64,000 nt of DNA from Candidatus Kaiserbacteria bacterium (GTDB taxonomy: Bacteria > Patescibacteriota > Minisyncoccia > Phycocordibacterales > UBA2100): positions 4,784 to 68,783 of the forward strand of contig JACRFK010000010.1 of NCBI GenBank assembly GCA_016217925.1, in the 5' to 3' direction. Shown one piece after another: positions 13,445 through 53,564 of this stretch. The position numbers were made by a program, and so were the translations under genes. Within the stretch, counting starts at the first letter, position 1. Every line of letters begins with the position of its first letter. Under the pieces are notes generated by a model, which saw only the letters and a program-made list of their open reading frames with translations, ran no database searches and was not told the origin of the DNA.

Positions 13445-13451
13445 TGGCTTT

Positions 13452-14843: not shown

Positions 14844-14849
14844 ATCCGT

Positions 14850-16477: not shown

Positions 16478-16537
16478 CTCAACGTTATAGCACCGTCCCC
16501 CCTGTTAGGCGAGTGGATAAAAGGTGCGCGAAAGTAT

Positions 16538-22319: not shown

Positions 22320-24224
22320 ATGACTTCCGTTCACACGGATGATGACCGCCGTATCACGTATTTTGCGGCGACGCACACGCGCGGCAAGCGCGAAATGTTC
22401 GGCATTCGCGGGATAGACCGCGGCAAACACATCTACGTCATCGGCAAGACGGGTATGGGCAAGTCCACCATGCTCGAAAATATGGCGATTCAGGACATCC
22501 AGAACGGCGAGGGCATCGCGTTCATCGATCCGCATGGCTCCACCGCCGAGAAATTGCTCGATTTCATCCCGCACGAACGCATCAAAGACGTCGTATATTT
22601 CGCACCCTTCGACACCGACCACCCCATCGGATTCAATGTGATGGAAGACGTCGGCTATGACAAACGCCACCTCGTGGTCTCGGGCCTGATGGGGGCCTTG
22701 AAGCGCATTTGGGTGGATGCGTGGAGCGCGAGAATGGAATACATTCTGCAAAATACGCTGCTCGCCCTCCTTGAGTATCCCGACTCGACGCTCCTCGACG
22801 TAAACCGCATGCTCACCAACAAGACCTTCCGCGCCGCGGTCGTCGCAAAAATCACGGACCCAATCGTGAAAGGATTTTGGGTAGAGGAATTTGCGGCGTT
22901 TACCGACACCTATACCCGCGAAGCGACACCCGCCATTCAGAACAAAATAGGTCAATTCACCGCCAATCCTCTCATCCGCAACATCGTGGGGCAGGGGAAG
23001 TCTTCATTCGACCTGCGCAAGATAATGGACGACAAGAAGATTTTCATCGTCAACCTCTCCAAAGGGCGCATGGGCGAGACCAACGCTTCGCTCTTGGGCT
23101 CAATGCTCGTCGTCAAGATCTACCTCGCAGCGATGTCGCGCGCCGACGAGCCGGCGGCGCGCATGGCGAGATTGCCGCGATTCTATTTCTACGTCGACGA
23201 ATTCCAGTCCATGATGAACGAAGCCTTCGCCGACATTCTCTCCGAGTCGCGCAAATACAAACTCGCGCTCACGCTCGCCAACCAGTACATCGAGCAAATG
23301 GAAGAAGAGGTGCGTGACGCGGTCTTCGGCAACGTTGGTACGCTCATCGTATTTCGCGTCGGCCCCTTTGATGCAGAAGTGTTGGAGACGGTTTTTGACC
23401 CGACATTCACGCCGGAAGACCTCGTGGGCTTAGGCATCGGGCAGATATACCTCACGCTCATGATAGACGGTGTCGGCTCCAAGCCGTTCTCCGCGGAGAC
23501 CATTCCCCCCATCGATACGCCCCCCATTTCGTATCGCGATGACTGCATACAGAGCTCGCGAGAGCTCTACGGGAGAGCGCGCGCAGAAATTGAAGCTGCG
23601 GTCAATCAAAAACAGCTCGATTTTCAAGCGCTACCAAAGGAAAAAAAAGAACGTGAGAAGAGCACATACGGATCTCGGCCGCGGCCATCCAATGCCGCCC
23701 CGCGCGGATTTGTCGCAGATCGACCACGCGAAGCTCCTGCGGTGAGGAAGGAACCTTTGCCCGCGTCGCCGAATTCCGCGGACCGTTACGCGACACATAC
23801 ACCCACGGCTTCACCCGAAGTGGGCCCGTCTCGCCCGCCTCGATTCGGCGAAGCGGGCCGGAGCGGAGCCGAGGCGGAGCAGCGCTCGGCTCTGCGCGCG
23901 GCCATCGCGCAGGCGCGACCTGCGACCCCCGAAGCGCCAGTACATTCCGCCCCCATCCGCTCTCCTGCAGATATTTTGCGCGAACGACGAGCGATGAAAC
24001 AGCAACCGGCCACTCCACATGCGGCACACCACGCTGCAAGAGCCGGGCACTCCATAAAGCCGCCGCATATCCCGAATCCACAGCCTCATGCCCGCCCCGT
24101 GCCTCGACAGGACTTTTCGAGCGATAATGGCGCGAATGACACTGCCGACCTATCTCCTCAGGCGGGTGAAGTATCTCCTGAAGTTCTCAAACAAGTATTG
24201 CGCGGAGAAGGATCGAACGAGTAA
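22320..24224 (+). CDS. VirD4/TrwB/TraD-like type IV coupling-protein ATPase with a long disordered Pro/Ala/Arg-rich C-terminal tail
   Basis: 634 aa. Walker A VIGKTGMGKST, DPHGS (cf. TrwB DPNGD), Walker B FYFYVDEFQSM and LANQY are present. The last ~190 aa are low-complexity (PRPSNAAPRGF...PHAAHHAARAGHS...). Confidence 0.75.
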   Translation: MTSVHTDDDRRITYFAATHTRGKREMFGIRGIDRGKHIYVIGKTGMGKSTMLENMAIQDIQNGEGIAFIDPHGSTAEKLLDFIPHERIKDVVYFAPFDTDHPIGFNVMEDVGYDKRHLVVSGLMGALKRIWVDAWSARMEYILQNTLLALLEYPDSTLLDVNRMLTNKTFRAAVVAKITDPIVKGFWVEEFAAFTDTYTREATPAIQNKIGQFTANPLIRNIVGQGKSSFDLRKIMDDKKIFIVNLSKGRMGETNASLLGSMLVVKIYLAAMSRADEPAARMARLPRFYFYVDEFQSMMNEAFADILSESRKYKLALTLANQYIEQMEEEVRDAVFGNVGTLIVFRVGPFDAEVLETVFDPTFTPEDLVGLGIGQIYLTLMIDGVGSKPFSAETIPPIDTPPISYRDDCIQSSRELYGRARAEIEAAVNQKQLDFQALPKEKKEREKSTYGSRPRPSNAAPRGFVADRPREAPAVRKEPLPASPNSADRYATHTPTASPEVGPSRPPRFGEAGRSGAEAEQRSALRAAIAQARPATPEAPVHSAPIRSPADILRERRAMKQQPATPHAAHHAARAGHSIKPPHIPNPQPHARPVPRQDFSSDNGANDTADLSPQAGEVSPEVLKQVLRGEGSNE

Positions 24225-24258
24225 TACTGTTCTTGTCGTCGCGACCGTGGTGGGTGCG

Positions 24259-25617
24259 ATGGCGCTTCCTGCCAGTATATCCGCAGAGGTGGCTAACTTT
24301 GTTTTTATAACGGGTCCGCAAGTCGTGCAGCCGGGAGTCGTTTCGGAGCAGATAACCGTGCAGGCGCAATCAGCGGGAGGCGAAAGTAGTTCTCTCACGA
24401 GTACGGCATGTTTTTCGTTCGTGAGTACGTCGGCACAGGGAGAGTTTTCTTCCAATGCCACAAACTGGAGCCCTGTGTCGGTTCTCACAATGAACAAAGG
24501 CACCGCGAATAAGAATTTTTATTACAAGGATACGCAAAATGGGACACAAACGCTTACGATCAAGATTGCGCTCAAACCGGAAAGTGAGAGCCGTTCCTGC
24601 GCGAGTTGGCCGGTGGAAGAGTGGAATATGCAGTGGACCGTAACCCAAGGCATCACCGTTGGCGCGAGTTCGCCTTCCGGAAGTTCCGGTTCGTCCGATG
24701 GGTCTCAAGCCGGCACGACGCCGACCGGCGCAGAAGACTTTGGCCCGGGGAACAAGCCCGTCGGTTCGTCAAAAATGCCGCCTCCGCCGAAAGTATTTGC
24801 GGATGGCGGAGGCGACCGCACGGTCATCGTGGGTGCGGATACGGAATTTCGGGCGCGTGCGTACGATGAGAAGAAACATCTGATAGACTTCGCTACATTT
24901 CACTGGAATTTCGGCGACGGCTCGACCGCAGAAACCTCGGTCGTCTACCACCACTTCGATCATCCCGGACGGTATGTAGTCGTCCTAGAGGTTCCCGAAG
25001 AAAAAGATTCGGCCTCCGATCAATTCACGGTCACCGTGGAGAGGATGGAGCTCGGGCTGTCTCTATTTCCGGACGGCAGTGTTGCAATAGAGAACCATGC
25101 AGGCCGCACGCTCGATCTCTCTCGCTGGGCCATACGTTCTCTTGGGCGGACGTTCACTATTCCGGATCGTACGTTCGTTCTTACCCGCAACACGTTGTAC
25201 ATATCTCAAGATACGCTCGGGTTCACAAGCGGCCCGGACGTAGAATTAGATTATCCGAATGGCGTCTTCGCACTCGGCTTGGCACCCGTCGCGACGTCTT
25301 CGCTGCCGGTACGCGTGACCACGACCACCCCAGAAGATGCGGCAGAGGACCGCGACGAGGAGATTACGCAGGATCTTGCGAGCGAAGCAGTTCCCGCAGA
25401 GATAGATAGCGGGAAGACTGAACCACCGGAGTTACCGGCAACGAGCCCTAGTTCAGAGCAGGTCGCGGCCGCGGCGACCTCTCCGTCGGAATCTTCTTTC
25501 ATGTGGTGGTTCGGAGCCCTCGGCATTGCAGGGCTTGCCGCTGGTTCTTTGACACTTGCACGACGGTACGGCAAAAAGGAGTGGGACATCATTGAAGAAA
25601 GCGACGAGGCGGTGTAG
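24259..25617 (+). CDS. PKD-domain surface protein with C-terminal membrane anchor
   Basis: First ATG after the upstream stop (track ORF 24088 overlaps the ATPase). PKD signature FHWNFGDGSTAETSVVYHHFDHPGRYVVVLEV. C-terminal TM FMWWFGALGIAGLAAGSLTLARRYGKK. The true start may be an upstream GTG. Confidence 0.55.
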   Translation: MALPASISAEVANFVFITGPQVVQPGVVSEQITVQAQSAGGESSSLTSTACFSFVSTSAQGEFSSNATNWSPVSVLTMNKGTANKNFYYKDTQNGTQTLTIKIALKPESESRSCASWPVEEWNMQWTVTQGITVGASSPSGSSGSSDGSQAGTTPTGAEDFGPGNKPVGSSKMPPPPKVFADGGGDRTVIVGADTEFRARAYDEKKHLIDFATFHWNFGDGSTAETSVVYHHFDHPGRYVVVLEVPEEKDSASDQFTVTVERMELGLSLFPDGSVAIENHAGRTLDLSRWAIRSLGRTFTIPDRTFVLTRNTLYISQDTLGFTSGPDVELDYPNGVFALGLAPVATSSLPVRVTTTTPEDAAEDRDEEITQDLASEAVPAEIDSGKTEPPELPATSPSSEQVAAAATSPSESSFMWWFGALGIAGLAAGSLTLARRYGKKEWDIIEESDEAV

Positions 25618-26482: not shown

Positions 26483-27793
26483 ATGTCTGATAATCACATG
26501 TCCGCCGAAGGCGGATCCGCCTCCGGCGGAAAGCGCATTCTCATCTTTTCTCTCGCGTATTTTCCCAAGTATATCGGTGGAGCCGAGGTCGCTATTAAGG
26601 AGATAACCGACCGCAATCCCGATATCGAATTCCACATGGTGACGAACCGCTTTGATGCGGCGCTTCCGAAGGTCGAGAAGATAGGGAATGTGCTGATACA
26701 CCGCATTGGCATCGCGAGGCGAGGTGCTTCGATGTCGGACTTGCGGAAGTGGCCGCTTAACCTCAATAAACCACTTTTCCAATTTCTTGCTGCGTGGAAG
26801 GCGTTCTCGCTCCATCGCACGCATCACTACGATGCCATCTGGGCGATGATGGCGCATTCGAGCGGCATTCCTGCTATCATTTTCAAACTACTGCACCCGC
26901 GTGTTCCGTACATCCTTACGCTCCAAGAAGGTGATCGGCTCGAAAAAATAGAGCGGATGATGGTGCCACTCTGGCCCCTTTTTACGCGTGTTTTCAAGCG
27001 TGCCGATGTCGTTCAGACCATTTCCACATTCCTCGGACGCTGGGCGCACCGTCGCGGCTTTACGGGACGGCTTGAAGTTATCCCGAACGGGGTGGACGTC
27101 GCACACTTCTCGCGCAAAGAAATGCCTACGGTCATCGACGCCCTGAAAGATAGCCTTGGCAAAAGGATGGGAGATGTGTTCCTCATCACGACCTCCCGCC
27201 TCGTGCGCAAGAACGGCATCGACGTCGTCATCAAAGCGCTCCCGCTTCTTCCCGAGCATGTCCGGTTCATCGTACTCGGTGTGGGGCCCGATGACCTCAC
27301 GCTGAAGAGGCTCGCGCGTGAATGCAAAGTGCCTGAGCGTGTGAGATTCATGGGTGAAGTGGCGAATACGGATATCCCGAAATATTTGCACGCCTCCGAC
27401 ATATTCGTGAGACCATCGCGCTCCGAAGGCATGGGCAATTCATTCGTCGAAGCATTTGCAGCGGGATTACCCGTCATCGGCACACAGGAGGGGGGTATCG
27501 CGGATTTTCTTTTCGACCCCGAAAAGATTCGCGCAAGCGCGAATTCTCACGGGGCAGGCGAGGAGCGCACTCAAGAGTTTGGTGCGCCTTCTCCTGAATA
27601 TAAGACGGGGTGGGCAGTGGATACTGATTCGCCTGAACAAGTGGCGGAGGCGGTGAGAGACATCATGGAGCACCCTGAAAAAGTGCGCGCGGTCGTGGCG
27701 ACGGCGCATGCACTCGCGGTGGAAAAGTACGATTGGAACACGGTGGCGAAAGACATGCGCGAGAAAGTGTTTCTCCCGATCTTGAACAGGTAG
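26483..27793 (+). CDS. glycosyltransferase, GT4 family (GT-B)
   Basis: 436 aa. C-terminal EGMGNSFVEAFAAGLPVIGTQEGG (E-x7-E) motif. Confidence 0.8.
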   Translation: MSDNHMSAEGGSASGGKRILIFSLAYFPKYIGGAEVAIKEITDRNPDIEFHMVTNRFDAALPKVEKIGNVLIHRIGIARRGASMSDLRKWPLNLNKPLFQFLAAWKAFSLHRTHHYDAIWAMMAHSSGIPAIIFKLLHPRVPYILTLQEGDRLEKIERMMVPLWPLFTRVFKRADVVQTISTFLGRWAHRRGFTGRLEVIPNGVDVAHFSRKEMPTVIDALKDSLGKRMGDVFLITTSRLVRKNGIDVVIKALPLLPEHVRFIVLGVGPDDLTLKRLARECKVPERVRFMGEVANTDIPKYLHASDIFVRPSRSEGMGNSFVEAFAAGLPVIGTQEGGIADFLFDPEKIRASANSHGAGEERTQEFGAPSPEYKTGWAVDTDSPEQVAEAVRDIMEHPEKVRAVVATAHALAVEKYDWNTVAKDMREKVFLPILNR

Positions 27794-28170: not shown

Positions 28171-29223
28171 ATGCTTATGAAGAGAGTTGCTGTCGTCGGT
28201 GGAGGAATATTTGGCGCTACCGCCGCCATCTATGCTGCACGCGCGGGGCACGAGGTGCATTTGTTCGAAAAAGAATCGGATGTCCTGCAGGCCGCCTCCG
28301 GCATCAATCAGTACCGGCTCCACCGTGGGTACCACTACCCGCGCTCGTCAGATACGGCGCGTTCGGCGAAGGAGGCAGACGTCTCGTTCCGCGATGAGTA
28401 TCGCGAGGCTGTAATCGAGAACGGCCGGCACATCTATGCTATCGCCAAAGAGGGAAGCTTGGTTGCTCCGGAAGCATTTCTCGCGTTTTGCCGTGAGCAG
28501 GGACTAGAGGTCAAGGAAATCCCGGCCGAGCCGCATCTCGTTCCCAATTTGGTCGCTCTCGTCGTTGAAGGAGAGGAATCGTGGATGGATCCGGCAGCTC
28601 TGCGGCGTGTCGTTCTCAAGAAACTCAAAGAGTCAGGCGTTGAGCTCCACCTCAACACCCGCGCCACTCCGGAGATGCTCGAATCATTCGATACGGTAGT
28701 ACTCGCGACATACGCGCGGCTCAATGAGCTCGTGCCGCCGGAAGTTGATGTGACCCAGGAATACCAGTACGAGGTGTGTGAAAAGCCGGTCGTTCGTTTG
28801 TCCGGCTTGGAGAACATTGGCATCGTGGTCCTTGACGGACCGTTCATGTGCGCCGACCCGTGGGGGGACAGCGGGCTGCACGTGCTCGGCAACGTGGTAC
28901 ACGCGATACACGCGACCAACATCGGTCGAACCCCCATTATTCCCGAAAACCTTGCACCGCTCCTCGACCGCGGCCTCATCAAGAATCCGCCCATTACGAA
29001 GATACAAGACTTCATCGCAAGCGGCTCGCAGTACATACCCGCTCTTGGTACGGCAGAACACGTTGGCTCTCTTTTCACCATACGCACGGTCTTACCGCGG
29101 CTCGAAAAGACCGATGCGCGACCGACCATCGTGACCAAACTTTCCGACCGCTACATCAGAATATTCTCGGGGAAAATTGGGAATTGTGTGGAGGCGGCAA
29201 AAGAGGTCGTGGCACTTCTCTAG
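28171..29223 (+). CDS. FAD/NAD(P)-binding oxidoreductase
   Basis: 350 aa. N-terminal dinucleotide-binding VAVVGGGIFGATAAIYAA...VHLFE. Confidence 0.65.
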   Translation: MLMKRVAVVGGGIFGATAAIYAARAGHEVHLFEKESDVLQAASGINQYRLHRGYHYPRSSDTARSAKEADVSFRDEYREAVIENGRHIYAIAKEGSLVAPEAFLAFCREQGLEVKEIPAEPHLVPNLVALVVEGEESWMDPAALRRVVLKKLKESGVELHLNTRATPEMLESFDTVVLATYARLNELVPPEVDVTQEYQYEVCEKPVVRLSGLENIGIVVLDGPFMCADPWGDSGLHVLGNVVHAIHATNIGRTPIIPENLAPLLDRGLIKNPPITKIQDFIASGSQYIPALGTAEHVGSLFTIRTVLPRLEKTDARPTIVTKLSDRYIRIFSGKIGNCVEAAKEVVALL

Positions 29224-30110
29224 GCTCGCCCCGCCGTCGGCGGGGCGAGCATCTCATGGATTTTCAGCACGTGTGCGCCGAAATCTCCGGCCGTGCGCGG
29301 TATCGCTCCTCCGCCTGCGGCCCCGATAAACACTCGTACTTCTTGCGTGAGCGATGTCTCGGTGCTTTCAAAAATAACCTCTTCACCCTTGTATAATTTC
29401 GTGTCGTCCCACCGCAGCTTCGTGCCATCGATGAGTGTTGCCTCAATCGTATGGGCCTTCTCTTCCGAGAGCCTATCTATCTTCGAAATGAATTCGCACT
29501 GTTTGTAGGCGAACTTCGTCTCGATGCGATCGCATACGGTTTCTCCCGCCTCGCGCAAAGTGACCGATGCGGACTCCGGCATGCCATACAGGTCGTATGC
29601 AATTGAGAGGTGATGAGTGAGAAGAGCATTTTCGATGATGTCGAAGAACGTCCCATGCTTTTTCCACGTGCATTCTATGCGCGTAGCACCCTTTTCTTGT
29701 ATGAGGCGTTTGAGTTCCTGATAGACGGGGTGGTAGAGGAGCGTGTAGCCCGTCATAAGTATGCGGCCCTTTTCTTGCGCGAGCGCAGCGAGCGCGTATG
29801 CCTCCGCAGAGGTTTCTGTCAGCGGCTTTTCCACGAAGACGTGCTTTCCGGCTTCAAGAAAACGCCGGGCTATTTTTTCATGCGTTGCGACCGGGGTGGC
29901 GATGGCTACCGCGTCGACCACGGCATCGGCACTTATTTCCTCCACGCTCGCACGACGGGTTTGGGGCAGGGCTGTCGCAGCCCACGCGTCGTTCTTGTCG
30001 CTTTCTGAGGCAAAATACGCGAGCTCGCTTACATCTGCGAGTTCGCGGGCGACATTCTTACCCCATCTGCCGACCCCGATAATAGCGGTTTTCAGGCGCT
30101 TTTGTTCCAT
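29220..30110 (-). CDS. Gfo/Idh/MocA-family NAD(P)-dependent oxidoreductase (sugar dehydrogenase-like)
   Basis: 296 aa. AIIGVGRWGKN and EKPL motifs. Convergent with, and overlapping, the previous gene by 4 nt. Confidence 0.8.
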   Translation of the reverse strand: MEQKRLKTAIIGVGRWGKNVARELADVSELAYFASESDKNDAWAATALPQTRRASVEEISADAVVDAVAIATPVATHEKIARRFLEAGKHVFVEKPLTETSAEAYALAALAQEKGRILMTGYTLLYHPVYQELKRLIQEKGATRIECTWKKHGTFFDIIENALLTHHLSIAYDLYGMPESASVTLREAGETVCDRIETKFAYKQCEFISKIDRLSEEKAHTIEATLIDGTKLRWDDTKLYKGEEVIFESTETSLTQEVRVFIGAAGGGAIPRTAGDFGAHVLKIHEMLAPPTAGRA

Positions 30111-30135: not shown

Positions 30136-31251
30136 ATGCGCGTGCTTCTTACCACGGGTATCTTTTTCCCCGACGTCGGGGGTCCCGCCACACACGTGCG
30201 CAAGATAGCTGAACATTTTGCGGGCCTCGGATGGCAGGTCACAGTGGTCGCTTTTGGCAATCACACAGGCAGTTCGCAAAAATACCGGGTGGTACGGGTG
30301 AGCCGGAAGTGGGGCAAGCTCGCCTCGTGGCTGCTCTACGCCTTGGCCATTGCGCGTGAATCGTTCAAGCACGATGTGCTCTATGCATTTGACCTCACGA
30401 CCGCCGGCATTCCAAGCGCACTCTTCGCAAAACTCCTCCGCAAGCCATTCATCCTCCGTATCGGCGGCGACCCTATCTGGGAGCGCATCGTGGAAAAAGG
30501 CGAGAGGTCCTTGCCGATGCGCGCATACTACGAGCAAGGGCTTTTCAAGAAAGATAAGCCGACACTGTATCGCATCATTCGCCGCGTGGTGCGCACTGCA
30601 GACACCGTTGTAACGTACTGCGACTTTCTCAAAGATATTTACGTGAGGCACTACGGCGTGAGCGAAAAAAGAGTCGTGCAGATCAAAAACCCATTCCCGA
30701 CAAAGACCTCCGCGACACTCGAAAAAGACACGTTCACATTCCTTTTTGCGGGGAGGTTCGTGTCGTATAAGAATCTGCCGCGCGTTCTCAAAGTGTTCAG
30801 GACCATTTCTGCAAAGCACGACAATGCCCGACTCGTCCTTATTGGCGACGGTCCCGATGAAGCGGCACTAAAAGCGAGGGCGGCTGCGCTTGGCAGCAAA
30901 GTGGAGATAATTCCGAAGGTAGATCAGAAGGCGCTCTTCGCCCGCATCAACGCGTCGTCCGTCGCGCTCGCTCCCGCGCTCACCGAATTCAATCCGAATT
31001 TCATTCTCGAAAGCTTGGCGCTTGGCAAACCTGCGCTCATCAGCCGCGACAACGGTCTCTCCGCACAGTTGCCCGACTACATGCAATTCGATCCGATGGA
31101 CGATGCATCACTCGAAACGGCGATGGAGCGCATGCTCGACGCAGGGAACTACCGTGAAGCCATTCGCGTCGTCGCCGGACTTCCGATGGACCAGACGTGG
31201 GGGAAAGTCGTCGCGGAACACGCAGTCATTGTGCAAGCAGCTGCCGGGTGA
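30136..31251 (+). CDS. glycosyltransferase, GT4 family
   Basis: Internal ATG (aa 126) of track ORF 29761, whose 5' part is antisense to the previous gene. MRVLLTTGIFFPDVGGPATHV... is a typical GT4 start. C-terminal E-x7-E region (FNPNFILESLALGKPALISRDNG). Confidence 0.8.
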   Translation: MRVLLTTGIFFPDVGGPATHVRKIAEHFAGLGWQVTVVAFGNHTGSSQKYRVVRVSRKWGKLASWLLYALAIARESFKHDVLYAFDLTTAGIPSALFAKLLRKPFILRIGGDPIWERIVEKGERSLPMRAYYEQGLFKKDKPTLYRIIRRVVRTADTVVTYCDFLKDIYVRHYGVSEKRVVQIKNPFPTKTSATLEKDTFTFLFAGRFVSYKNLPRVLKVFRTISAKHDNARLVLIGDGPDEAALKARAAALGSKVEIIPKVDQKALFARINASSVALAPALTEFNPNFILESLALGKPALISRDNGLSAQLPDYMQFDPMDDASLETAMERMLDAGNYREAIRVVAGLPMDQTWGKVVAEHAVIVQAAAG

Positions 31252-31295: not shown

Positions 31296-31419
31296 CGTCC
31301 CGTTAGAAGTCACGGAAGTTCTTCTAGTGGTAAGCAGGTGGTAGCTTTACATATGGTCGATATCTTAGGAACGATAATTTTTGAGTCGGAAGCGCAGGCT
31401 TCCTACTTCTAACGGGATG
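31296..31419 (+). promoter_or_regulatory. inverted-repeat leader element whose 3' arm overlaps the start codon (shared 13-mer TTCTAACGGGATG)
   Basis: GCGTCCCGTTAGAAGT (31296-31310) pairs with ACTTCTAACGGGATGCGC (31405-31422). The internal hairpin GGAAGC-gcag-GCTTCC is at ~31389-31404. The same 13-mer precedes the gene at 55522. Confidence 0.35.
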
Positions 31420-33357
31420 CGCGTACTGGTACTCTCCACCGATTGGAACGCTTTTAATGAATCGAGCGCTGTTACCAAGCGCCTGCAGATGCAGGCGCGC
31501 ACGGTGGAGCGCATGGACGTCCTGGTGCCCCACGGGCCCCTACAGCTCGTCCAGATATCAGGAAACGCCTCGGTGCGGGGATTTGGCTTGGGACGCGTTT
31601 TGGGCTCTCTGCGCACTATTGCGGCCGGATGGCGACTCCAACGGCCGGATGTCGTCTCTGCGCAAGACCCGTTCTTGACCGGCTTCGTCGCATGGATAAT
31701 CGCGTGGATGCGGGGAAGCAAACTCCACCTGCAAGTACATACCGACCTTTTCGACCCGTACTTCGGCGGCCTCTCGCTCGGCAATCGCCTGAAAGTGTTG
31801 CTTGCGCGATTTCTTCTCACACGGGCGGATTCCGTGCGTGTTGTTTCCAAACGCATCGCAGATTCACTTGCTGCACGCGGTATCAAAGCGCCCGTTACCG
31901 TACTGCCTGTATTTGTCGACCTTGAGAATCTCAAAAAAACGGAACCGCTCGATAAGCGTGAGCGGTACCCGAATTTCAAGAAAATCGTTCTTGTTGTCGC
32001 ACGGTTGGAAAAAGAAAAGAATGTCGCGGCATCTGTCCGTGCATTTGCAGAAATTGCAAAAGCGGATACGAGCGCGGGGCTCGTCGTCATCGGGAGCGGT
32101 TCACAGCGTGTGCCACTCGAAACGCTCGCGCGCGAGCTCGGTATCACGGACAAAGTGGTGTTTGAAGGCGCGCAAGACCCGTTCCCGTTTTACAAATCCG
32201 CAGACCTCGTCCTCGTTACGTCGGAATACGAAGGATTCGGCATGGTCATCGTAGAAGCGCTTGCGGCCGGGTGTCCGGTCGTTTCCTACGATATAGGTCT
32301 TGCGCGTGAGGCGGGCGCTGTTATTGCGAAGGTCGGAGATTTGCCTCGTGTCGCCACCGCCGTTTTATCCGAAAGGAAGCGTGGCAAACTCACGCTCAGT
32401 TTTCCCAATGAAGCCGAATACCGCGAACTGTGGTTCGCCGATATCTCTCTTTCGGTCTCAGGCGTCGAAGCTCGCGCGGGAGAGAAGAAAAGCACCGGTG
32501 AGCAACCCACCGTGGGCTATGTGGGGCAGGGATTCATCGGCAAGAATTATGCCGATGAGCTCGAAAGCCGCGGCTTTAAAGTAGTCCGGTATTCGCTCGA
32601 AGAGCCGTATCGCAACAATAAAGACAAAATAAAAGATTGCGATATCGTTTTTATCGCGGTACCGACGCCGACTACACCCGACGGGTTTAGCGACACCATC
32701 GTGCGGCAGACGGTCGGGCTCGTGGGCGAGGGCAAAGTCGCGGTCATTAAATCCACCATGCTCCCCGGCATGACTGAAAAGATACAAAAAGAATTCCCGA
32801 AACAGGTCGTGATGCACTCACCCGAATTCTTGCGCGAGGCGACCGCCGCATACGACGCCGCGCATCCGGACCGCAACATCGTGGGTATTTGTACGGATAC
32901 ACCCGAAGTACGCGCGCTCGGGCAAAAGGTCATTTCTATTCTTCCGCCTGCACCATTTGAGCTCGTGTGCTCCTCAGTGGAGGCGGAATTCATCAAGTAT
33001 GCGGGCAATAACTGGCTCTATATCAAGGTCGTGTACGTCAACATCCTCTACGATCTTGTGCAGAAGCTCGGCGGCAATTACGAGCACGTGCGCGACGCCT
33101 TCGCGGCCGACCCTAGAATGGGCCGCTCGCACCTTGACCCGATACACGCGAGCGGACATGGCGGACCTCCCGGCCGCGGTGCAGGCGGGCATTGCTTCAT
33201 CAAAGATTTCGCTGCGTTCCGCTCGATGTATGAACAAGTGTTTCCGGAAGATAAAGCGGGCATTGAGGCACTGAAGGGAATGGAGGAGAAAAATGTGAAG
33301 CTTCTGCGTGATGCGCACAAAGACCTCGATTTGCTCGATGGCGTCTATGGGAAGTAA
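31417..33357 (+). CDS. fusion protein: GT4 glycosyltransferase (N) + truncated UDP-glucose/GDP-mannose 6-dehydrogenase-like domain (C)
   Basis: N-terminal GT-B carries the E-x7-E motif (YEGFGMVIVEALAAGCPVVS). The C-terminal ~290 aa has the nucleotide-sugar-dehydrogenase Rossmann GYVGQGFIGKNYA, VPTPTTPDG (cf. VGTPT) and catalytic-Cys motif GGHCFIKD (cf. GGSCFPKD). It lacks the C-terminal UDP-binding domain. Confidence 0.7.
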   Translation: MRVLVLSTDWNAFNESSAVTKRLQMQARTVERMDVLVPHGPLQLVQISGNASVRGFGLGRVLGSLRTIAAGWRLQRPDVVSAQDPFLTGFVAWIIAWMRGSKLHLQVHTDLFDPYFGGLSLGNRLKVLLARFLLTRADSVRVVSKRIADSLAARGIKAPVTVLPVFVDLENLKKTEPLDKRERYPNFKKIVLVVARLEKEKNVAASVRAFAEIAKADTSAGLVVIGSGSQRVPLETLARELGITDKVVFEGAQDPFPFYKSADLVLVTSEYEGFGMVIVEALAAGCPVVSYDIGLAREAGAVIAKVGDLPRVATAVLSERKRGKLTLSFPNEAEYRELWFADISLSVSGVEARAGEKKSTGEQPTVGYVGQGFIGKNYADELESRGFKVVRYSLEEPYRNNKDKIKDCDIVFIAVPTPTTPDGFSDTIVRQTVGLVGEGKVAVIKSTMLPGMTEKIQKEFPKQVVMHSPEFLREATAAYDAAHPDRNIVGICTDTPEVRALGQKVISILPPAPFELVCSSVEAEFIKYAGNNWLYIKVVYVNILYDLVQKLGGNYEHVRDAFAADPRMGRSHLDPIHASGHGGPPGRGAGGHCFIKDFAAFRSMYEQVFPEDKAGIEALKGMEEKNVKLLRDAHKDLDLLDGVYGK

Positions 33358-34399
33358 ACCGCAACGACTTCTCGTCGTCACACAGGTTGTCGATAGTACG
33401 GACCCGTTCCTCGGATTTTTTCACGGGTGGCTGGAAGAGCTTGCGAAGCATTTCGAGCACATCCATGTGATATGCCTCAAAGAGGGTGAACACAAACTTC
33501 CGGCGAATGTGCATGTTCATTCGCTGGGGAAGGAAAAAGGAGAGTCGCGCGGGAAATATGTTTTTCGATTTCTCGGATACGTCTGGAAATTGCGCGGCGA
33601 GTACGACACGGTCTTCGTGCACATGAATCAGGAATATATTTTGCTCGCCGGATGGCTCTGGAAGCTTTTGGGCAAGCGGATGTATATGTGGCGCAATCAC
33701 TACGCCGGCGGGTTTCTGACGGATATGGCCGCGATGTTCGCTGTGAAAGTATTTTGTACCTCGGCACATTCCTACACGGCAAAATACAAAAAGACAGTCA
33801 TCATGCCGGTCGGAGTGGACACTCAGTTATTTGCGCCGGGCGCTGGGTTCCGCATGCCACGCTCCATTTTATTCTTGAGCCGCTTCGCGCCCGCAAAAAA
33901 GCCGGATGTGCTGCTGGAAGCACTCGGAATACTTTCGAAAGAAGGCGTCCAATTCACGACGTCTTTTTATGGGACGGCTCTCCCGCAAGATACCGCGTAT
34001 CGTGAGAAGGTCATCAAGCGTGCACAGACACTCGGTCTCGGGAACTTCGTGAATTTTTACGAAGGTGTACCGCACACCCAAGCACCGGACATATTCAACA
34101 AGCACGAAATATTCGTAAATCTGTCTTCGAGCGGCACGTACGACAAGACGATGTTCGAGGCTGCCGCGTCCGGCTGCGTCGTCATCGCGGCAAGCAAAGA
34201 TTTTGCGACAGTTGCAGGTGAGCAGTCCCTTGTCGCTGAAGATGTAAAAGCGGTGGCGGATAAGTTGCGTGAGTTCCTTGCGCTCGCGGACGGTGCGCGT
34301 GCCACTCTTGCGGCGCAATTACGGGAGAAAGTACTTGCGGGACAGAGTCTGCCGTTTCTTGCGCAACGCGTAATAACCGAGATGTCAGAAAAAAAATGA
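33338..34399 (+). CDS. glycosyltransferase (GT-B, GT4-like)
   Basis: About 353 aa. The start is chosen at an internal ATG overlapping the upstream stop. Two-domain GT-B pattern, with the C-terminal FEAAASGCVVIAAS region. Confidence 0.6.
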   Translation: MASMGSKPQRLLVVTQVVDSTDPFLGFFHGWLEELAKHFEHIHVICLKEGEHKLPANVHVHSLGKEKGESRGKYVFRFLGYVWKLRGEYDTVFVHMNQEYILLAGWLWKLLGKRMYMWRNHYAGGFLTDMAAMFAVKVFCTSAHSYTAKYKKTVIMPVGVDTQLFAPGAGFRMPRSILFLSRFAPAKKPDVLLEALGILSKEGVQFTTSFYGTALPQDTAYREKVIKRAQTLGLGNFVNFYEGVPHTQAPDIFNKHEIFVNLSSSGTYDKTMFEAAASGCVVIAASKDFATVAGEQSLVAEDVKAVADKLREFLALADGARATLAAQLREKVLAGQSLPFLAQRVITEMSEKK

Positions 34400-37155
34400 T
34401 TACTATGCGATTCTGCTATTTCGGCATTTACGACCCTGAATTTTCGCGCAACAGGATTTATATGCGCGCTCTTCGCGATGCAGGGCACGAAATCATCGAA
34501 TGTAGGGACAACAGTCGAGGGTTGCTTAAGTACATCCGGCTGGTGCAGCGTCTCCGTGCCCTGAAAGGTTCGTACGACGTCATACTAGTCGGGTACCCCG
34601 GGCACATTGTAGTGCCTCTTGCGCGGCTCTTTGGCGCTGCTCCGGTTGTGTCCGATCTGCTAGGCTCTCTTTCGGACGCTGCGGAGCATACGTACGATGC
34701 CGGATTTTTTGTTCGGACGTGGTACTCATGGGTGGATCGACTTGCAGTTGCGTTCTCAGATGCCATCCTCGTCGACAGTGAACTTCAGAAGGAATATATG
34801 CAGCGTCGATATGGTAGTGGGAAGAAATATCGAGTTGTGTACACAGGGGCGGATGAAGAGGTATTCGGACCGCGTGGGGAGCGAGGTGTCACGCGCACTG
34901 AGCCATTTGTTGTGTTGTTCCGGGGCAGGCTTATTCCCCAAGCGGGCATCATGCACATACTGGACGCCGCAGAAGGTTTACAAAACGACAAACGTTTCGC
35001 ATTTCGGATCATTGGATACGGTCCATTGCTTGAGGCTGTACGTGAGCGGGCCGGCGGATTATCGAATGTAGAGCTTATCGCAGAGCACATTTCTTTTGAT
35101 GAGATGCGCCGTCTGATGCTTGATGCCGACGTGAGCCTCGGCCAATTTGGGGACAACGAGCGATCGGACCGCAACATACCGCACAAAGCATATGAGTCGA
35201 TCTCTATGGGTATTCCCTACCTTACAGCACGAGTGCCTGGGATATCCGAACTTCTTGAGGATGAGGTCTCGTGTCTTATGGTGCCGTTGGAGAACTCGGA
35301 AGCGATTAAAGCCGCTCTTGAGCGGCTTAGAGACGACCGCCCACTTGGAAAGCAGCTTGCAGAGATGGCGCGGGCGGTATACGAAGCGCATGCGTCGGCT
35401 CGTGTTATTGCTTCAGCGATTACGGCTGTCTCCGTCTCATGCGTCGAAGCAAAGAAAAAGCTGGCCAAACGAAGCTTAGAGTGGATCGGGAAGCGTGAGA
35501 TGGTGGTCGTACTTGTCCTGCTCGCGGCATTCGTAGCGATACGCCTCCCCGGGCTCTCTCTTCCATATCATCAGGACGAGGCAAAGATTGGAGAGATTGT
35601 GCGCTCGCATATGGTAGGCGCGCTTTCCGGGCACCCACCGCTAACAGAACTCTTGTACCTCTCTGCCGGCGATATAGTCGGCTCAGACCATTTGCGTCTC
35701 ATACCGCTTATATTTGGCGTTCTATCGGCCATTCTCTTGTATGCGATAGTCCGACGGAGGGCGGGATTGCATGCGGCCTACGCCTCTCTCGCGCTCTATA
35801 TCATCTGCATGTACGGTGTATTTGCCTCGCTGATGGTAGATACGGATGGGGCCGTGCTCCCGACACTTTTTCTCGCGGCAGTGTACGCATATGACCGTTT
35901 TCGTGATGCGGCATCCGCTCGTGTTTCGTATGTATGGCTGTCTGTTCTTGCGCTCGCGCTCATCGCCGGGTTTCTAACCAAGCTCAGTTTCGTGCTCGTC
36001 TTGGGAGCGCTCGCGCTCGATTACCTCTTCGAAGTGCGTCACAGGCTTACACGCAGGCTTCTCATCCGTGCAGTTTTCGCCGCTTTGGTTTGTGGGGTTG
36101 CGGCAGCTGTTGCACTCGCGAGCGCACACTTTTTTCTCCCTTCTTTTGACGTGAGCCAGACTATTCTGCACGCGCTCTCCTATGTGCGATTTGAAGGGCG
36201 CGGATATTTACAGATCCTGATACAAGCGGTGAAGGCGGTCTTCTACCTTTCTCCGCTCCTTCTCCTACCACTGGTGTTTCTCACGAAAGATACCTTCACA
36301 AAGAACAGGATATTTTTCGTCTACCTCGGCTTGGGCGCGTTCTTTTACTTTGTCCTATTTGATTTCTCTCAGGGAGCGCTCGATAAGTATTTGATGTATA
36401 CCATCGTGCCGCTCGCAGCTATCATGGGTACCATCTTCACCGATGCAATGCGCGGACTTACGGTGCGAGCTCTCGCGGCAGGATCTATTCTCGGAGCAAT
36501 GTGTGCGACATTGCTCGTCGCCCTCAACTTCCTCTCACCGAGTGTCATGCCGCTCTATCCGAAAACGGAATGGCTCTCTGCGATCGCAGCCGGGAATTGG
36601 AATATTCTCATGCCGTTCACGGGGGGCGACGGACCGATAGGATTTTATGTCTCGTTCCTCGTCATCGCCGCTGGATTCGGCATCTCCGCCGCTCTTGCTG
36701 CTCTCGCGCTTTTCGTACCGAAAGCGCGCGGTGCGCTTCTCGTCGCTCTTATTGTGGTCGGTGTAGCGTTCAACGGTATTTTCATCGAAGAGTATATTTG
36801 GGGCCGCATTAACGGCAGCGCACCCTCGGCCCTTCGGGCGAGTCTCGCGTACATTGCTAGTTCAGACGATGTGAAAAGTATTATTTCCCACGGGGAGATC
36901 GGAGCGTACGAGCTCAGAGGAATGGGCAAATTCAGCGGCAGATTTTATGCGGTCCCCGGTTACGAGGAAGGACACAAGGCGTTATTCTCGAAGTTTACCG
37001 GCGCATATCTGGTCGTGGGTGTGCCCCGCTTCAATGATGCAAGTTTTTACAGTAAGTTTTTCAGTACATGCACACCAATCTTCACGACTTCGTCCGGAGT
37101 CATCAACGCCTACGTATATGGCTGTGCAGGAAGCGATCCATACGCTATAAAGTAA
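34396..37155 (+). CDS. fusion protein: GT-B glycosyltransferase (N, ~370 aa) + ArnT/PMT-like GT-C polytopic membrane glycosyltransferase (C, ~550 aa)
   Basis: N-terminal GT-B carries E-x7-E (HKAYESISMGIPYLTARVPGISELLEDE). The C-terminal domain has about 12 TM segments. Its first extracytoplasmic loop carries the PMT_2/ArnT signature LPYHQDEAKIGEIVRSHM (cf. ArnT LPDETRYAEISREM). Confidence 0.7.
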   Translation: MITMRFCYFGIYDPEFSRNRIYMRALRDAGHEIIECRDNSRGLLKYIRLVQRLRALKGSYDVILVGYPGHIVVPLARLFGAAPVVSDLLGSLSDAAEHTYDAGFFVRTWYSWVDRLAVAFSDAILVDSELQKEYMQRRYGSGKKYRVVYTGADEEVFGPRGERGVTRTEPFVVLFRGRLIPQAGIMHILDAAEGLQNDKRFAFRIIGYGPLLEAVRERAGGLSNVELIAEHISFDEMRRLMLDADVSLGQFGDNERSDRNIPHKAYESISMGIPYLTARVPGISELLEDEVSCLMVPLENSEAIKAALERLRDDRPLGKQLAEMARAVYEAHASARVIASAITAVSVSCVEAKKKLAKRSLEWIGKREMVVVLVLLAAFVAIRLPGLSLPYHQDEAKIGEIVRSHMVGALSGHPPLTELLYLSAGDIVGSDHLRLIPLIFGVLSAILLYAIVRRRAGLHAAYASLALYIICMYGVFASLMVDTDGAVLPTLFLAAVYAYDRFRDAASARVSYVWLSVLALALIAGFLTKLSFVLVLGALALDYLFEVRHRLTRRLLIRAVFAALVCGVAAAVALASAHFFLPSFDVSQTILHALSYVRFEGRGYLQILIQAVKAVFYLSPLLLLPLVFLTKDTFTKNRIFFVYLGLGAFFYFVLFDFSQGALDKYLMYTIVPLAAIMGTIFTDAMRGLTVRALAAGSILGAMCATLLVALNFLSPSVMPLYPKTEWLSAIAAGNWNILMPFTGGDGPIGFYVSFLVIAAGFGISAALAALALFVPKARGALLVALIVVGVAFNGIFIEEYIWGRINGSAPSALRASLAYIASSDDVKSIISHGEIGAYELRGMGKFSGRFYAVPGYEEGHKALFSKFTGAYLVVGVPRFNDASFYSKFFSTCTPIFTTSSGVINAYVYGCAGSDPYAIK

Positions 37156-37158
37156 CCT

Positions 37159-38574
37159 ATGCACCTCAGTAAGACCGCGCGAGAGTATTTCGATGCACAG
37201 GCGGACGAGCGTCTCAAGTGGCGGCGCAAGAATCCGTATTACCATGACTCGCTCGAATCCTTCGTCGGGTTCCTTGTCCCGCGCGGCAGTTCGGTGCTCC
37301 ACGTCGGAGCCGACTCGGCGTCGCTCCTCAATCTGTTGGCCCCGGCCCGTGGGCTGGGTATCCACGCGAGCGCCCGCATCATAGGTGAGGTCAACAAGCA
37401 GGGGATTTTGCCGGGGCTCCAATTCAAACAGACGGAGCTCTCGCAAGTCAAAGGTGTGTTCGAATATGTTGTTATTTCAGACTTGCTCGGACACGTCGAT
37501 GATATTGAGATGCTTTTTCGGGAAGCGACAAGGCTCATCTCGTGGCGCGGCCGCATAGTGGTGACACAGCACAGCGCATTGTGGGGGCCGGTACTGCGCC
37601 TCGCTTCAGCGCTCGGACTTCGGGTGCCATATCGCTTGGAAAATTGGGTCTCACGCACTGACCTTGAGAATTTCGCGCACCTCGCGGGGCTGGAGGCGGT
37701 GCGGAGCGGCACGCGGATGCTCATTCCGAAACGCGTCCCATTCATAAGCACGTTCTTCAACGCCTACCTTGCGAATATTTTTCCGTTCACACGGCTCGGC
37801 TTGTATCACTACGTCGTCTTGCGCAAGCAGGACTCCCGCTCACCGATTCCCAACCCCTCGCTTTCCATTGTTGTCCCGGCACGTAACGAGGCCGGTATGA
37901 TAGAGCGCATTGTAAAAGAGTTGCCAACGCTCGGAGAGTTCACCGAGCTAATCCTTGTCGAAGGACATTCCAAGGATAATACGTGGCAAGAAATCCAACG
38001 TGTCGCAAAAGAGTACGGCGCGAAGAAGAAAATACTCATCGCACAGCAGGAGGGCAAAGGCAAGGGTGATGCGGTACGCAAAGGATTCGACATGGCGACT
38101 GGGGATATCCTTACTATATACGATGCGGATATGACCGTGCCTGCTCCGGACGTGGAAAAATTCTATCGGGCCCTTGTCGAAGGAAGGGGGGATTTCATCA
38201 ATGGCTCGCGGCTTGTGTACCCCCTTGAGAAACAATCTATGCAATTTCTTAACTTTCTTGCCAATAAGTTTTTTGGGCTCGCTTTCAGCTGGCTTTTGAG
38301 CTCGAAGTTGAAAGACACGCTCTGCGGCACGAAGATGCTGTGGCGCGAGGACTACAAAGAAATACAGGCGGGCCGCTCGTTTTTCGGCGACTTCGATCCC
38401 TTCGGCGACTTCGACCTACTCTTCGGAGCCGCCAAGCTCAACAGAAAGATCATTGATATGCCGGTCCATTACGGAGAGCGTACCTATGGGACGACGAATA
38501 TAGAGCGGTGGAGTCACGGATGGTTGCTTCTGAAAATGACCGTTTTTGCCCTGCGTAAGATAAAATTTGTGTGA
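37159..38574 (+). CDS. fusion protein: degenerate class-I methyltransferase-like domain (N) + Dpm1/GtrB-like GT2 polyprenyl-phosphate glycosyltransferase (C)
   Basis: The N-terminal ~215 aa are a paralog of the downstream MT at 38571 (YFDAQADERLKWRRKNPYYHD vs YFDAIAAQYDYWKKKNAYYHE). The SAM motif I is degenerate (VLHVGADSAS vs VLEIGCGTGD). The C-terminal GT2 has LSIVVPARNEAGMI and the DxD motif YDADMT. Confidence 0.7.
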   Translation: MHLSKTAREYFDAQADERLKWRRKNPYYHDSLESFVGFLVPRGSSVLHVGADSASLLNLLAPARGLGIHASARIIGEVNKQGILPGLQFKQTELSQVKGVFEYVVISDLLGHVDDIEMLFREATRLISWRGRIVVTQHSALWGPVLRLASALGLRVPYRLENWVSRTDLENFAHLAGLEAVRSGTRMLIPKRVPFISTFFNAYLANIFPFTRLGLYHYVVLRKQDSRSPIPNPSLSIVVPARNEAGMIERIVKELPTLGEFTELILVEGHSKDNTWQEIQRVAKEYGAKKKILIAQQEGKGKGDAVRKGFDMATGDILTIYDADMTVPAPDVEKFYRALVEGRGDFINGSRLVYPLEKQSMQFLNFLANKFFGLAFSWLLSSKLKDTLCGTKMLWREDYKEIQAGRSFFGDFDPFGDFDLLFGAAKLNRKIIDMPVHYGERTYGTTNIERWSHGWLLLKMTVFALRKIKFV

Positions 38575-39239
38575 CTTTTTCGGAAGACTACTTTGACGCA
38601 ATTGCCGCCCAGTATGATTACTGGAAAAAAAAGAATGCCTATTACCACGAGAATCTGAAACTATTGTACGGGCAATTCATCCCGAAAGGGGCGCGAGTTC
38701 TCGAAATCGGCTGTGGCACGGGGGACATCTTGGCACGCCTTGAGCCGAAAGAGGGAAGGGGGGTCGACGTGAGCGAAGAGATGGTGGAAATCGCACGGCG
38801 CAAATATGCGGGCAAATCGAATCTTCAGTTCGAGCGCGAAGATATTTTTGAAAGCACGAAAATGTTCGGATATCCGTACATTTTTCTTGCCGACGTGCTG
38901 GAGCATGTGGGCGGTCTCGAGAAATTTGTGCGACAACTTGCCGCCCGCACGGACTCGGGTAGTACGGTCGTTATCTCCGTCGCCAACCCGCTTTGGGAAC
39001 CGGTACTCATGCTCGCTGAGAAGCTCCATATGAAAATGCCCGAAGGCCCACACACACGCGATCCAATACAAGAAACGGAACGCATCTTCCGTGCATCCGG
39101 TTTTACCATCGTTGAACGCGGGTATCGGCTCCTCATTCCTAAGAAGATCCCTGGTGCCGATTGGCTTAATGCCCGATTCCATCACTTTCGGTTCTTTGCT
39201 CCGCTCGGTTTCGTTATTTTTTGGGTGCTCCGCCGATAG
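38571..39239 (+). CDS. class I SAM-dependent methyltransferase
   Basis: 222 aa. Intact motif I VLEIGCGTGD. GTG start overlapping the upstream stop (GTGA). Confidence 0.75.
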   Translation: MTFSEDYFDAIAAQYDYWKKKNAYYHENLKLLYGQFIPKGARVLEIGCGTGDILARLEPKEGRGVDVSEEMVEIARRKYAGKSNLQFEREDIFESTKMFGYPYIFLADVLEHVGGLEKFVRQLAARTDSGSTVVISVANPLWEPVLMLAEKLHMKMPEGPHTRDPIQETERIFRASGFTIVERGYRLLIPKKIPGADWLNARFHHFRFFAPLGFVIFWVLRR

Positions 39240-39699
39240 AAGGCATTACACCCTCGTGAGTATCGTGGAACACCAGGTGTTTGTAGCTGAAGTAGTTCAT
39301 CATGGCGATGAAGACACCGCTTATGAGCTGTGCCCCCAAGTAGTGAAGTCCCCCGTATTCAACAAGCACAAAGATAAGCGTTGTATTGATCCCAAGCCCG
39401 ACAAACACAATGGTCAAAAAGGTGAGTGCCTGCGCATACACATGATCTCTGGATACATCCTTAAACGTCCAGAGCTTTTGCATCGAAAAACTTACCCAAA
39501 AGGCGAGCATGAATGCAATTATCGATGAGAATACGTACCAGACGCTGAAGAAGTGAGTAAGGGAAAAGAGGGTTCCAAGGTTTACCAAAGTCGCAATACC
39601 ACCGGAGATACAGAATCGGATGATGCGCATCGGCGAAGGATACAGGGCGTTGGCGCGAGCGCGGACCTCTTTGATCAGGAGCAAGAGGTTCGCAATCAT
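39214..39699 (-). CDS. gtrA: GtrA-family membrane protein (polysaccharide synthesis/flippase accessory)
   Basis: 161 aa, 4 TM. RFCISGGIATLVNLGTLFSL is typical of PF04138. Confidence 0.75.
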   Translation of the reverse strand: MIANLLLLIKEVRARANALYPSPMRIIRFCISGGIATLVNLGTLFSLTHFFSVWYVFSSIIAFMLAFWVSFSMQKLWTFKDVSRDHVYAQALTFLTIVFVGLGINTTLIFVLVEYGGLHYLGAQLISGVFIAMMNYFSYKHLVFHDTHEGVMPSIGGAPKK

Positions 39700-42695: not shown

Positions 42696-42700
42696 GGCTA

Positions 42701-44727: not shown

Positions 44728-44796
44728 GTCTGGATATGCTACAGCGAAAGCGCTCTGCGTGCCAGTAATACCGCATGATGATACAATCCGGCACGT

Positions 44797-45963: not shown

Positions 45964-45964
45964 T

Positions 45965-47065: not shown

Positions 47066-47196
47066 GTACGAAGAACTTACTCCCCCTGCACCCTTGAGCC
47101 TGCAGGCGACGAAGTTACTTTTCTGAATTTGACGAGCTACAAGAAACAGGGCATTATCTGGACCGGCTTGAAAATCAGCCGAGAAAGGGGGCCGAG

Positions 47197-47745: not shown

Positions 47746-47791
47746 TTTCCCGCGACCCGGCCGCGCGCATGTGCGGCCGGGTAATCGTTTA

Positions 47792-48208: not shown

Positions 48209-48212
48209 ATGG

Positions 48213-50774: not shown

Positions 50775-50894
50775 AGACGAGTTTGAGTCATCATACACGT
50801 TTTGACATCTTTTTCATCTGATCTTTGAAAGAATCTCCAAGAAGAAAGCAATACTAGCAGACTGCTATTCTTCGGACAAGCTATCGATGTTATC

Positions 50895-51593: not shown

Positions 51594-51629
51594 TACGGTA
51601 TTGCCGCTCGCTCAGCATAGTGAAGAAAC

Positions 51630-52616: not shown

Positions 52617-52625
52617 ATTTTTTGC

Positions 52626-53561: not shown

Positions 53562-53564
53562 TCT

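Follow-up and report, generated by a model that had tools for sequence, protein, structure and literature searches.

A glycosyltransferase fused to a compact, two-domain UDP-glucose dehydrogenase-like module in a Patescibacteria glycan gene cluster

How might an enzyme of the UDP-glucose 6-dehydrogenase (UGDH) type work without the domain that binds the nucleotide? This clear and testable question is raised by a gene of a Candidatus Kaiserbacteria bacterium, found in a 64,000-nucleotide stretch of contig JACRFK010000010.1 (assembly GCA_016217925.1, positions 4,784 to 68,783 of the forward strand; hereafter the window, numbered from its first letter). The gene encodes a GT4-family glycosyltransferase joined to a dehydrogenase module that has the NAD-binding and central domains of UGDH and lacks the third, UDP-binding domain. 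To our knowledge, every characterised UGDH-family enzyme has three domains, the third of which holds the nucleotide. The module is probably an active, dimeric, compact sugar 6-dehydrogenase working beside the GT4 enzyme in surface-glycan synthesis.

The open reading frame list gives a single unbroken frame on the + strand, from 31381 (TTG) or 31417 (ATG) to 33357 (TAA). Because homologs start with MRVLVLSTDW, the ATG at 31417 was taken as the start, which yields a protein of 646 amino acids (aa) with the following parts:

31417..33357, + strand: whole gene, GT4 glycosyltransferase plus two-domain UGDH-like dehydrogenase, 646 aa and TAA (open reading frame list, Pfam, more than 110 full-length homologous fusions)
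31417..32460, + strand: GT4 (GT-B fold) glycosyltransferase domain, aa 1-348 (PF13579/PF13439 and PF00534; predicted local distance difference test, pLDDT, mostly >85 in the model)
32461..32508, + strand: inter-domain linker, aa 349-364, GVEARAGEKKSTGEQP (pLDDT <50 at aa 350-357; no consensus among fusions)
32509..32973, + strand: shortened NAD-binding Rossmann domain, aa 365-519 (PF03721 from profile position 71, Ugd alignment from residue 72, secondary structure of the model)
32974..33354, + strand: central all-helical (dimerisation and catalytic) domain, aa 520-646, complete, followed by a short capping helix (PF00984, models)

In the first half, Pfam matched Glyco_trans_4_4/Glyco_transf_4 (PF13579/PF13439) at aa 29-170 and Glycos_transf_1 (PF00534) at aa 182-298 (E = 9e-29), all above cutoffs. 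The UGDH-like module occupies aa 365-646. Here UDPG_MGDP_dh_N (PF03721) was matched above its cutoff at aa 402-493 (E = 3.5e-15), covering profile positions 71-177 of 187 only, and the central UDPG_MGDP_dh domain (PF00984) at aa 522-607 (E = 1e-13; 51.7 bits against a cutoff of 25.4), while the C-terminal UDP/GDP-binding domain PF03720 had no match on the protein. The initial annotation, made from the sequence alone, had described a GT4 and UGDH-like fusion that keeps the catalytic cysteine and ends before the nucleotide-sugar-binding domain. The continuous frame, this domain coverage (N-terminal partial, central matched, C-terminal unmatched), the homologous fusions and the tblastn result given below bear that description out, and the motifs it quoted were located at aa 370-375 (GQGFIG), 415-419 (VPTPT) and 590-597 (GGHCFIKD). 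Stand-alone dehydrogenases of the same family have, at the position of the linker, N-terminal leaders rich in Lys, Ser and Thr.

The dehydrogenase had also been called truncated. This was wrong, as it is a complete member of a family that natively has two domains and ends where the fusion protein ends. The dehydrogenase part, used as query, gave 5911 matches. The best 120 were almost all stand-alone proteins of 278-335 aa that carry the same pair of Pfam domains; they belong to Kaiserbacteria, Taylorbacteria, Paceibacterota and other Patescibacteria and share about 60% identity with the dehydrogenase of the fusion. Alignment of the stand-alone homologs placed the stop of the fusion protein exactly at the conserved KD.DLL.GVYG end of the family:

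33319..33354, + strand: native C-terminal motif of the family, KDLDLLDGVYGK (stand-alone homologs end there plus 0-15 variable residues)

When 1.84 billion representatives, each standing for one 50%-identity cluster, were searched with a profile, 540 scored E <= 1e-30, the best 150 being nearly all short. Scanning one genome per species located a relative in at least 585 species genomes. These are two-domain dehydrogenases of about 280-330 aa. Counts of loci given below refer to the best 80 species loci, which hold 79 genes for the short dehydrogenase and bear Patescibacteria-type labels or obvious mislabels of small genomes.

The gene that follows the fusion is also conserved:

33308..34399, + strand: downstream GT4-like gene, GT_down (Pfam; next after the fusion gene in 15 of the 19 loci with a fusion)

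The longest frame of GT_down, which begins with GTG at 33308, shares 50 nt with the end of the fusion gene (33308-33357), and its true start may be an internal Met codon a few residues on.

A frameshift, mis-assembly or pseudogene could in principle have merged two genes or cut a three-domain UGDH, and the two halves are separate genes in most relatives. This explanation is effectively refuted by the recurrence of the same 642-675-aa fusion in more than 110 clusters from independent assemblies and in 19 of the 80 species loci. The end of the protein is the native end of the family, and the next gene is the GT_down ortholog and not a C-terminal domain. When E. coli Ugd was compared with the window by tblastn, the only match was at 32632-33141 (Ugd residues 72-245), and the Ugd C-terminal domain was absent from every frame of the window. 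The native family terminus, the conserved downstream glycosyltransferase and the missing Ugd domain together exclude a frameshift or sequencing artefact, so that the frameshift envisaged at first, one that would restore a full dehydrogenase, was rejected. No separate gene for the C-terminal domain was present in the window or in 79 of the 80 related loci. The sole exception (L027) holds no lone domain. It encodes a complete canonical nucleoside diphosphate (NDP)-sugar dehydrogenase of 435 aa (TIGR03026, 330 bits), nearest to UDP-ManNAc dehydrogenase, at 11906-17323 together with an AsnB-like amidotransferase (610 aa) and a fusion of GT4 to the short dehydrogenase.

Residue conservation in the dehydrogenase was scored over 104 divergent short-form representatives of the family, and conservation within the GT4-dehydrogenase fusions in an alignment of 90 of them. 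The UGDH motifs lie as follows:

32524..32541, + strand: GxGxxG dinucleotide-binding motif, GQGFIG, aa 370-375 (97-99% conserved)
32749..32757, + strand: KST, aa 445-447 (S446 100%, T447 99% conserved; T447 aligns with E. coli Ugd T118)
32821..32838, + strand: PEFLRE, aa 469-474 (E470 100% conserved, aligns with Ugd E141)
32995..33009, + strand: KYAGN with K527 and N531 (100% and 97% conserved; align with Ugd K197 and N201)
33109..33117, + strand: DPR, aa 565-567 (R567 aligns with Ugd R237; 73% conserved family-wide, at least 90% in fusions)
33184..33207, + strand: GGHCFIKD, aa 590-597, with Cys593, Lys596 and Asp597 (97%, 98% and 95% conserved; Ugd C253, K256 and D257)

The equivalent of the UGDH catalytic Thr is T447 of KST rather than a residue of VPTPT, a motif of the NAD-binding part. 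Compared with E. coli Ugd, the NAD-binding domain is about 30 residues short between strand beta2 and the VPTPT strand. The central domain was modelled with helices at aa 520-550, 555-563, 592-608, 613-632 and 637-644. A model of the dehydrogenase module by itself was confident (pLDDT 94.4; predicted template modelling score, pTM, 0.90). Its 50 top solved fold matches were all three-domain UGDHs (TM-score 0.71-0.80, normalised to the query), with no two-domain structure among them.

The alternative that the initial annotation offered was a dehydrogenase domain recruited as a binding module. A module without catalysis, recruited by the glycosyltransferase to bind a sugar or nucleotide or for regulation, would be in keeping with the absence of a domain that canonical enzymes need and with a score under the TIGR03026 cutoff. 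Nevertheless, it is very unlikely. The NAD motif and the catalytic residues are 95-100% conserved in a family with only about 30-60% identity, and most members are stand-alone proteins. Conservation of GxGxxG and the whole catalytic set at 95% or more argues against a mere binding module.

The GT4 half carries its own conserved motifs:

32002..32019, + strand: RLEKEK, aa 196-201, with R196, E198 and K201 invariant (alignment of fusion homologs)
32230..32256, + strand: EX7E motif of retaining GT4 enzymes, E272-G-F-G-M-V-I-V-E280 (E280 invariant, E272 at least 90% in the 90 fusions)

R196, E198 and K201 are likely the donor-diphosphate-binding basic residues of GT4. Judged by its sequence, this half is an intact retaining glycosyltransferase, and both halves look catalytically competent. 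Scores of the GT4 half against NCBIfam equivalogs such as BshA, MshA and TuaC were all far under cutoff, the best being BshA with 92 against 274 bits.

The full-length query retrieved more than 110 homologous fusions, counted as protein clusters at 90% identity. They have 642-675 aa and the same domain set, are 44-93% identical and come from independent assemblies. The search for homologous fusions that had been proposed thus found them in number, and the notion that the fusion is rare was rejected. The best full-length match is a hypothetical protein from a Candidatus Kaiserbacteria genome. Among the 79 dehydrogenase genes of the 80 loci, 19 are fused to GT4, 57 stand alone and 3 encode tandem dehydrogenases of about 600 aa. 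Of the 57 stand-alone genes, 20 are immediately preceded, on the same strand, by an ortholog of the fused GT4, and 41 have one within three genes. These orthologs match the fused GT4 at 29-49% identity along most of their length, with intergenic gaps of -217 to 281 nt. The GT4 ortholog adjoining the stand-alone dehydrogenase indicates that the fusion joins a conserved gene pair. The possibility that the N- and C-terminal parts are separate genes therefore fails for this genome, with its single frame, and holds for most relatives, in which they are neighbouring genes. Fused and stand-alone dehydrogenase domains were not cleanly separated by neighbour-joining and average-linkage clustering, and 7 fused proteins form a divergent group apart, about 45% identical to the window protein.

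The tandem proteins (602, 585 and 604 aa in L050, L055 and L062, and 606 aa in P0232) hold two short modules per chain, which fits a dimeric family, as in UGDH. A stand-alone short dehydrogenase (286 aa) was also seen immediately upstream of a GT4-dehydrogenase fusion (654 aa) in one locus (L011, ~9100-11970), so that this cluster has two copies of the module.

The short dehydrogenase is also fused to GT1-family domains (in reverse order), GT2, an epimerase/dehydratase of the short-chain dehydrogenase/reductase (SDR) type, a D-Ala-D-Ala-ligase-like ATP-grasp domain and APS kinase (among P0243, P0247, P0249, P0314, P0339, P0280 and P0312, and loci L084 and L085). In P0339 and P0280 the partners are NDP-sugar SDR epimerase/dehydratase domains. 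RmlC-like, RmlD-like and SDR genes flank one distant family member in an overlapping operon. The fusion with APS kinase adjoins a GT4 and an ATP sulfurylase, the latter suggesting a sulfated glycan. Fusion to or adjacency with GT4, together with the reverse-order glycosyltransferase fusions and those with GT2, was counted for functional coupling to GT4.

The surroundings of the gene in the window are those of a glycan cluster of about 33 kb, with SDR epimerases/dehydratases, several GT4s, GtrA, a Wzx-like flippase and a Wzy_C protein, as well as GDP-mannose pathway genes, methyltransferases and two GT2s resembling polyprenyl-phosphate-hexose synthases. No canonical UGDH was found in this cluster. 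Two of its genes recur near the short dehydrogenase elsewhere:

30136..31251, + strand: upstream GT4 gene, GT4_up (Pfam; orthologs upstream of the GT4-dehydrogenase pair in many loci)
39214..39699, - strand: GtrA-family small membrane protein (PF04138, E = 4e-24)

The short dehydrogenase has a GtrA gene within 3 genes in 18 of 79 cases and an SDR gene in 31 of 79; stand-alone relatives are found in similar clusters, often adjoining one or the other. The invariant catalytic residues in both halves, the GT4-dehydrogenase gene pair and this context fit the other proposal of the initial annotation, a bifunctional enzyme that forms and transfers uronic acids.

The module might instead be active on another step of the pathway or on some other kind of substrate, for instance a sugar phosphate or a different primary alcohol. 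Fusion to GT4 would then reflect only co-expression or complex assembly and not two reactions in succession. The partners are indeed diverse (APS kinase, ATP-grasp ligase, SDR, GT2 and GT4), 16 of the 57 stand-alone genes have no gene like the GT4 half within three genes, and the start of the NAD-binding domain weakly resembles beta-hydroxyacid dehydrogenases (PF03446, E = 0.0067). That match is under its cutoff (16.9 against 21 bits). Moreover, conservation extends to the complete UGDH-specific set, with its Cys nucleophile and with the Arg, Lys and Asn that contact the hexose, and all contexts examined were glycan or nucleotide-sugar clusters. We regard this explanation as rather improbable.

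The module also departs from canonical UGDH in the region that would hold the substrate. In the human enzyme, the C-terminal Rossmann domain holds the UDP moiety, glucose is positioned by Arg260 from the partner protomer, and residues 265-280 wrap UDP-glucose (PMC3184952). From the shared DPRIG motif, R567 is tentatively equated with human Arg260; its place in DPRxG, the motif of the partner-protomer Arg in canonical UGDH, was counted for a dimer. The loop that follows has been changed:

33118..33183, + strand: remodelled substrate-wrapping loop, aa 568-589, MGRSHLDPIHASGHGGPPGRGA (insertion relative to Ugd)

Relative to Ugd it is extended by about 3 residues in the family as a whole and about 10 in the clade of the fusion protein, to which the large SGHGGPPG insert is confined. 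R587 is specific to the family and 95% conserved at the position of Ugd F247, and two His residues of the loop are conserved at 76% (H572) and 59% (H577). With the Arg and the catalytic set kept and the loop and domains altered, the hexose-contacting and catalytic parts are retained and the nucleotide-holding parts lost or rebuilt. Conceivably, the nucleotide-binding domain of the GT4 might take over from the missing UDP domain.

According to the reading that we prefer, the module would dimerise through its helical domain, as UGDH does, and oxidise the C6 hydroxyl of a hexose to the carboxylate in two NAD(P)+-dependent steps, with a thiohemiacetal and, after it, a thioester forming on Cys593. 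The usual UGDH roles would fall to Lys527, Asn531, Asp597, Glu470 and Thr447, and the remodelled loop with Arg587 would hold the nucleotide hexose in place of the lost domain. The fused GT4 would catalyse the adjacent step of the pathway with the nucleotide uronic acid as donor. That the sugar is oxidised as a nucleotide hexose, and the nucleotide uronic acid then handed to GT4, is a slight and tentative preference of ours. The ATP-grasp fusion and the AsnB-like amidotransferases of related clusters (L001 and L027) fit a carboxylate product, and the fusions to SDR domains and operons with SDR genes suggest that the substrate is a nucleotide sugar. The domain architecture, its native and untruncated form, its conservation and its linkage in genomes are demonstrated; activity, substrate and the order of the two steps are what we infer from these observations.

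Several points weigh against this reading. Because the UDP-glucose-wrapping loop is remodelled, the binding of a nucleotide sugar can only be inferred. The TIGR03026 cutoff is not reached (114.5 against 189.8 bits, with model positions 71-278 of 413 covered). The canonical NDP-sugar dehydrogenase beside a GT4-dehydrogenase fusion in L027 hints that the two forms are not redundant. In the full-length model the domains are good (pLDDT 88.9), the linker is disordered and the relative orientation of the halves is undefined (pTM 0.60), so it gives no evidence of a fixed channel between the active sites. Finally, the literature searched held no characterised member of the family and no paper on a two-domain UGDH-like enzyme or a GT4-dehydrogenase fusion.

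Alternatively, oxidation might follow transfer. The GT4 would then move a neutral hexose to a lipid-linked, glycan or small-molecule acceptor, the dehydrogenase would oxidise C6 of this non-nucleotide sugar, and the UDP-binding domain would have been lost since the substrate carries no UDP. Such an order would suit its native absence across the whole family, the remodelled wrapping loop with a conserved Arg in place of an aromatic residue, the retention of the hexose-contacting and catalytic residues, and the tight linkage or fusion of the family to glycosyltransferases. GtrA (18 of 79), the GT2s like polyprenyl-phosphate-hexose synthases and GT-C (PMT_2) genes point to lipid-linked sugars, and a canonical NDP-sugar dehydrogenase coexists in L027. 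Nevertheless, no UGDH-family enzyme is known to us that acts on a sugar without a nucleotide, nor did one appear in the literature searched. The family is fused to, or in operons with, SDR, RmlC-like and RmlD-like enzymes that act on nucleotide sugars. In addition, the glycosyltransferase fusions occur in both orders and also with GT2, which favours no single fixed relation of substrate and product. For this protein, oxidation after transfer is possible but doubtful. The wider proposal, that the compact Patescibacteria family makes uronic acids after glycosyl transfer, on a lipid carrier, glycan or other non-nucleotide acceptor and here on the GT4 product, seems slightly less likely still. If true, it would explain the family-wide loss of the UDP-binding domain and the rebuilt loop, and would amount to a uronic-acid route that bypasses nucleotide uronic acids.

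Whichever order holds, Patescibacteria have a large, strongly conserved two-domain branch of the UGDH family with the full catalytic set and no third domain, recurrently beside or fused to glycosyltransferases and other enzymes that modify sugars. Activity on nucleotide sugars would make it a minimal form of the enzyme with a new mode of substrate binding, and activity on transferred sugars would constitute a new route to uronic acids. In either case the branch marks a conserved surface-glycan pathway, probably an acidic one, in a group of bacteria with almost unstudied envelopes. With both halves in one chain, the fusion protein can serve as it stands for testing the two steps together. The GT4-dehydrogenase fusion is already in sequence databases, apparently uncharacterised; public annotations are automatic and read hypothetical protein, glycosyltransferase or UDP-glucose 6-dehydrogenase.

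Other features of the window were recorded alongside. Two further fusions of the glycan cluster follow GT_down: a 919-aa protein that combines GT4 with a PMT_2 (GT-C) membrane domain (34396-37155), and a 471-aa protein that combines a methyltransferase with a GT2 resembling AglJ or dolichyl-phosphate hexose transferase (37159-38574). Another GT4 (26483-27793) has TuaC as its best NCBIfam match, at 98 bits and well under cutoff. On the opposite strand, at 28171-30110, FAD-dependent (DAO-type) and Gfo/Idh/MocA oxidoreductase genes stand between the GT4 genes upstream of the fusion, a pair absent from that position in the relatives examined. All NCBIfam matches of the SDR, FAD-oxidoreductase and Gfo/Idh/MocA neighbours were far under cutoffs and did not reveal the sugar. 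The architecture of sugar C-methyltransferases (PF08421 zinc-binding plus PF08484) was found at 41433-42695 (+ strand) and 48213-49418 (- strand), a hint that the glycan contains branched or C-methylated sugars. G+C content is 0.465-0.49 at ~42000-54000, compared with 0.54-0.58 elsewhere in the window. This part, which holds the flippase, PMT_2, C-methyltransferase and GDP-mannose dehydratase genes, may have been acquired. Directly before the glycan cluster, at 22320-25617, are genes for a type-IV-secretion coupling-protein-like ATPase and a PKD-domain protein, in the same order as in a Taylorbacteria contig.

Among known systems, the module is closest to the UGDH family (E. coli and Klebsiella Ugd, S. 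pyogenes HasB and human UGDH), with which it has in common the NAD-binding and central helical fold and the motifs GxGxxG, KST, PEF, K...N, DPR and GG.C..KD. It is 33% identical to E. coli Ugd over residues 72-268. It differs from the canonical enzymes (PF03721+PF00984+PF03720) in lacking the C-terminal UDP-binding Rossmann domain, in its own KD.DLL.GVYG end and in falling short of the TIGR03026 cutoff, and from Ugd in having about 30 fewer residues in the N-terminal domain, a longer loop before the catalytic Cys and Arg587 for Phe247. In size and two-domain layout it matches the beta-hydroxyacid and 6-phosphogluconate-dehydrogenase-like enzymes (about 290 aa, Rossmann plus helical), and some automatic annotations of relatives read 3-hydroxyisobutyrate dehydrogenase-like. 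The PF03446 match to beta-hydroxyacid dehydrogenases covers aa 365-462 and is weak; unlike these enzymes, the module has a UGDH-type helical domain and the Cys/Lys/Asn/Asp set.

The GT4 half shares the GT-B fold and the EX7E motif with retaining GT4s of the BshA, MshA and PimA type. BshA and MshA are its top solved relatives by sequence (E = 6e-16) and fold (E about 1e-16). It differs from them in its low identity, 17-22% only, and in the dehydrogenase at its C-terminus.

For the pairing of the two activities, the nearest parallels may be the teichuronic-acid pair of B. subtilis (tuaD, UGDH, and tuaC, GT4) and ArnA. TuaD and Ugd, the partner of ArnA, are canonical three-domain enzymes encoded by separate genes, and ArnA combines a formyltransferase with an SDR decarboxylase rather than a glycosyltransferase with a dehydrogenase. 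What these systems would share with the Kaiserbacteria protein is the arrangement itself, a uronic-acid dehydrogenase set beside, or fused to, the next enzyme of surface-glycan synthesis.

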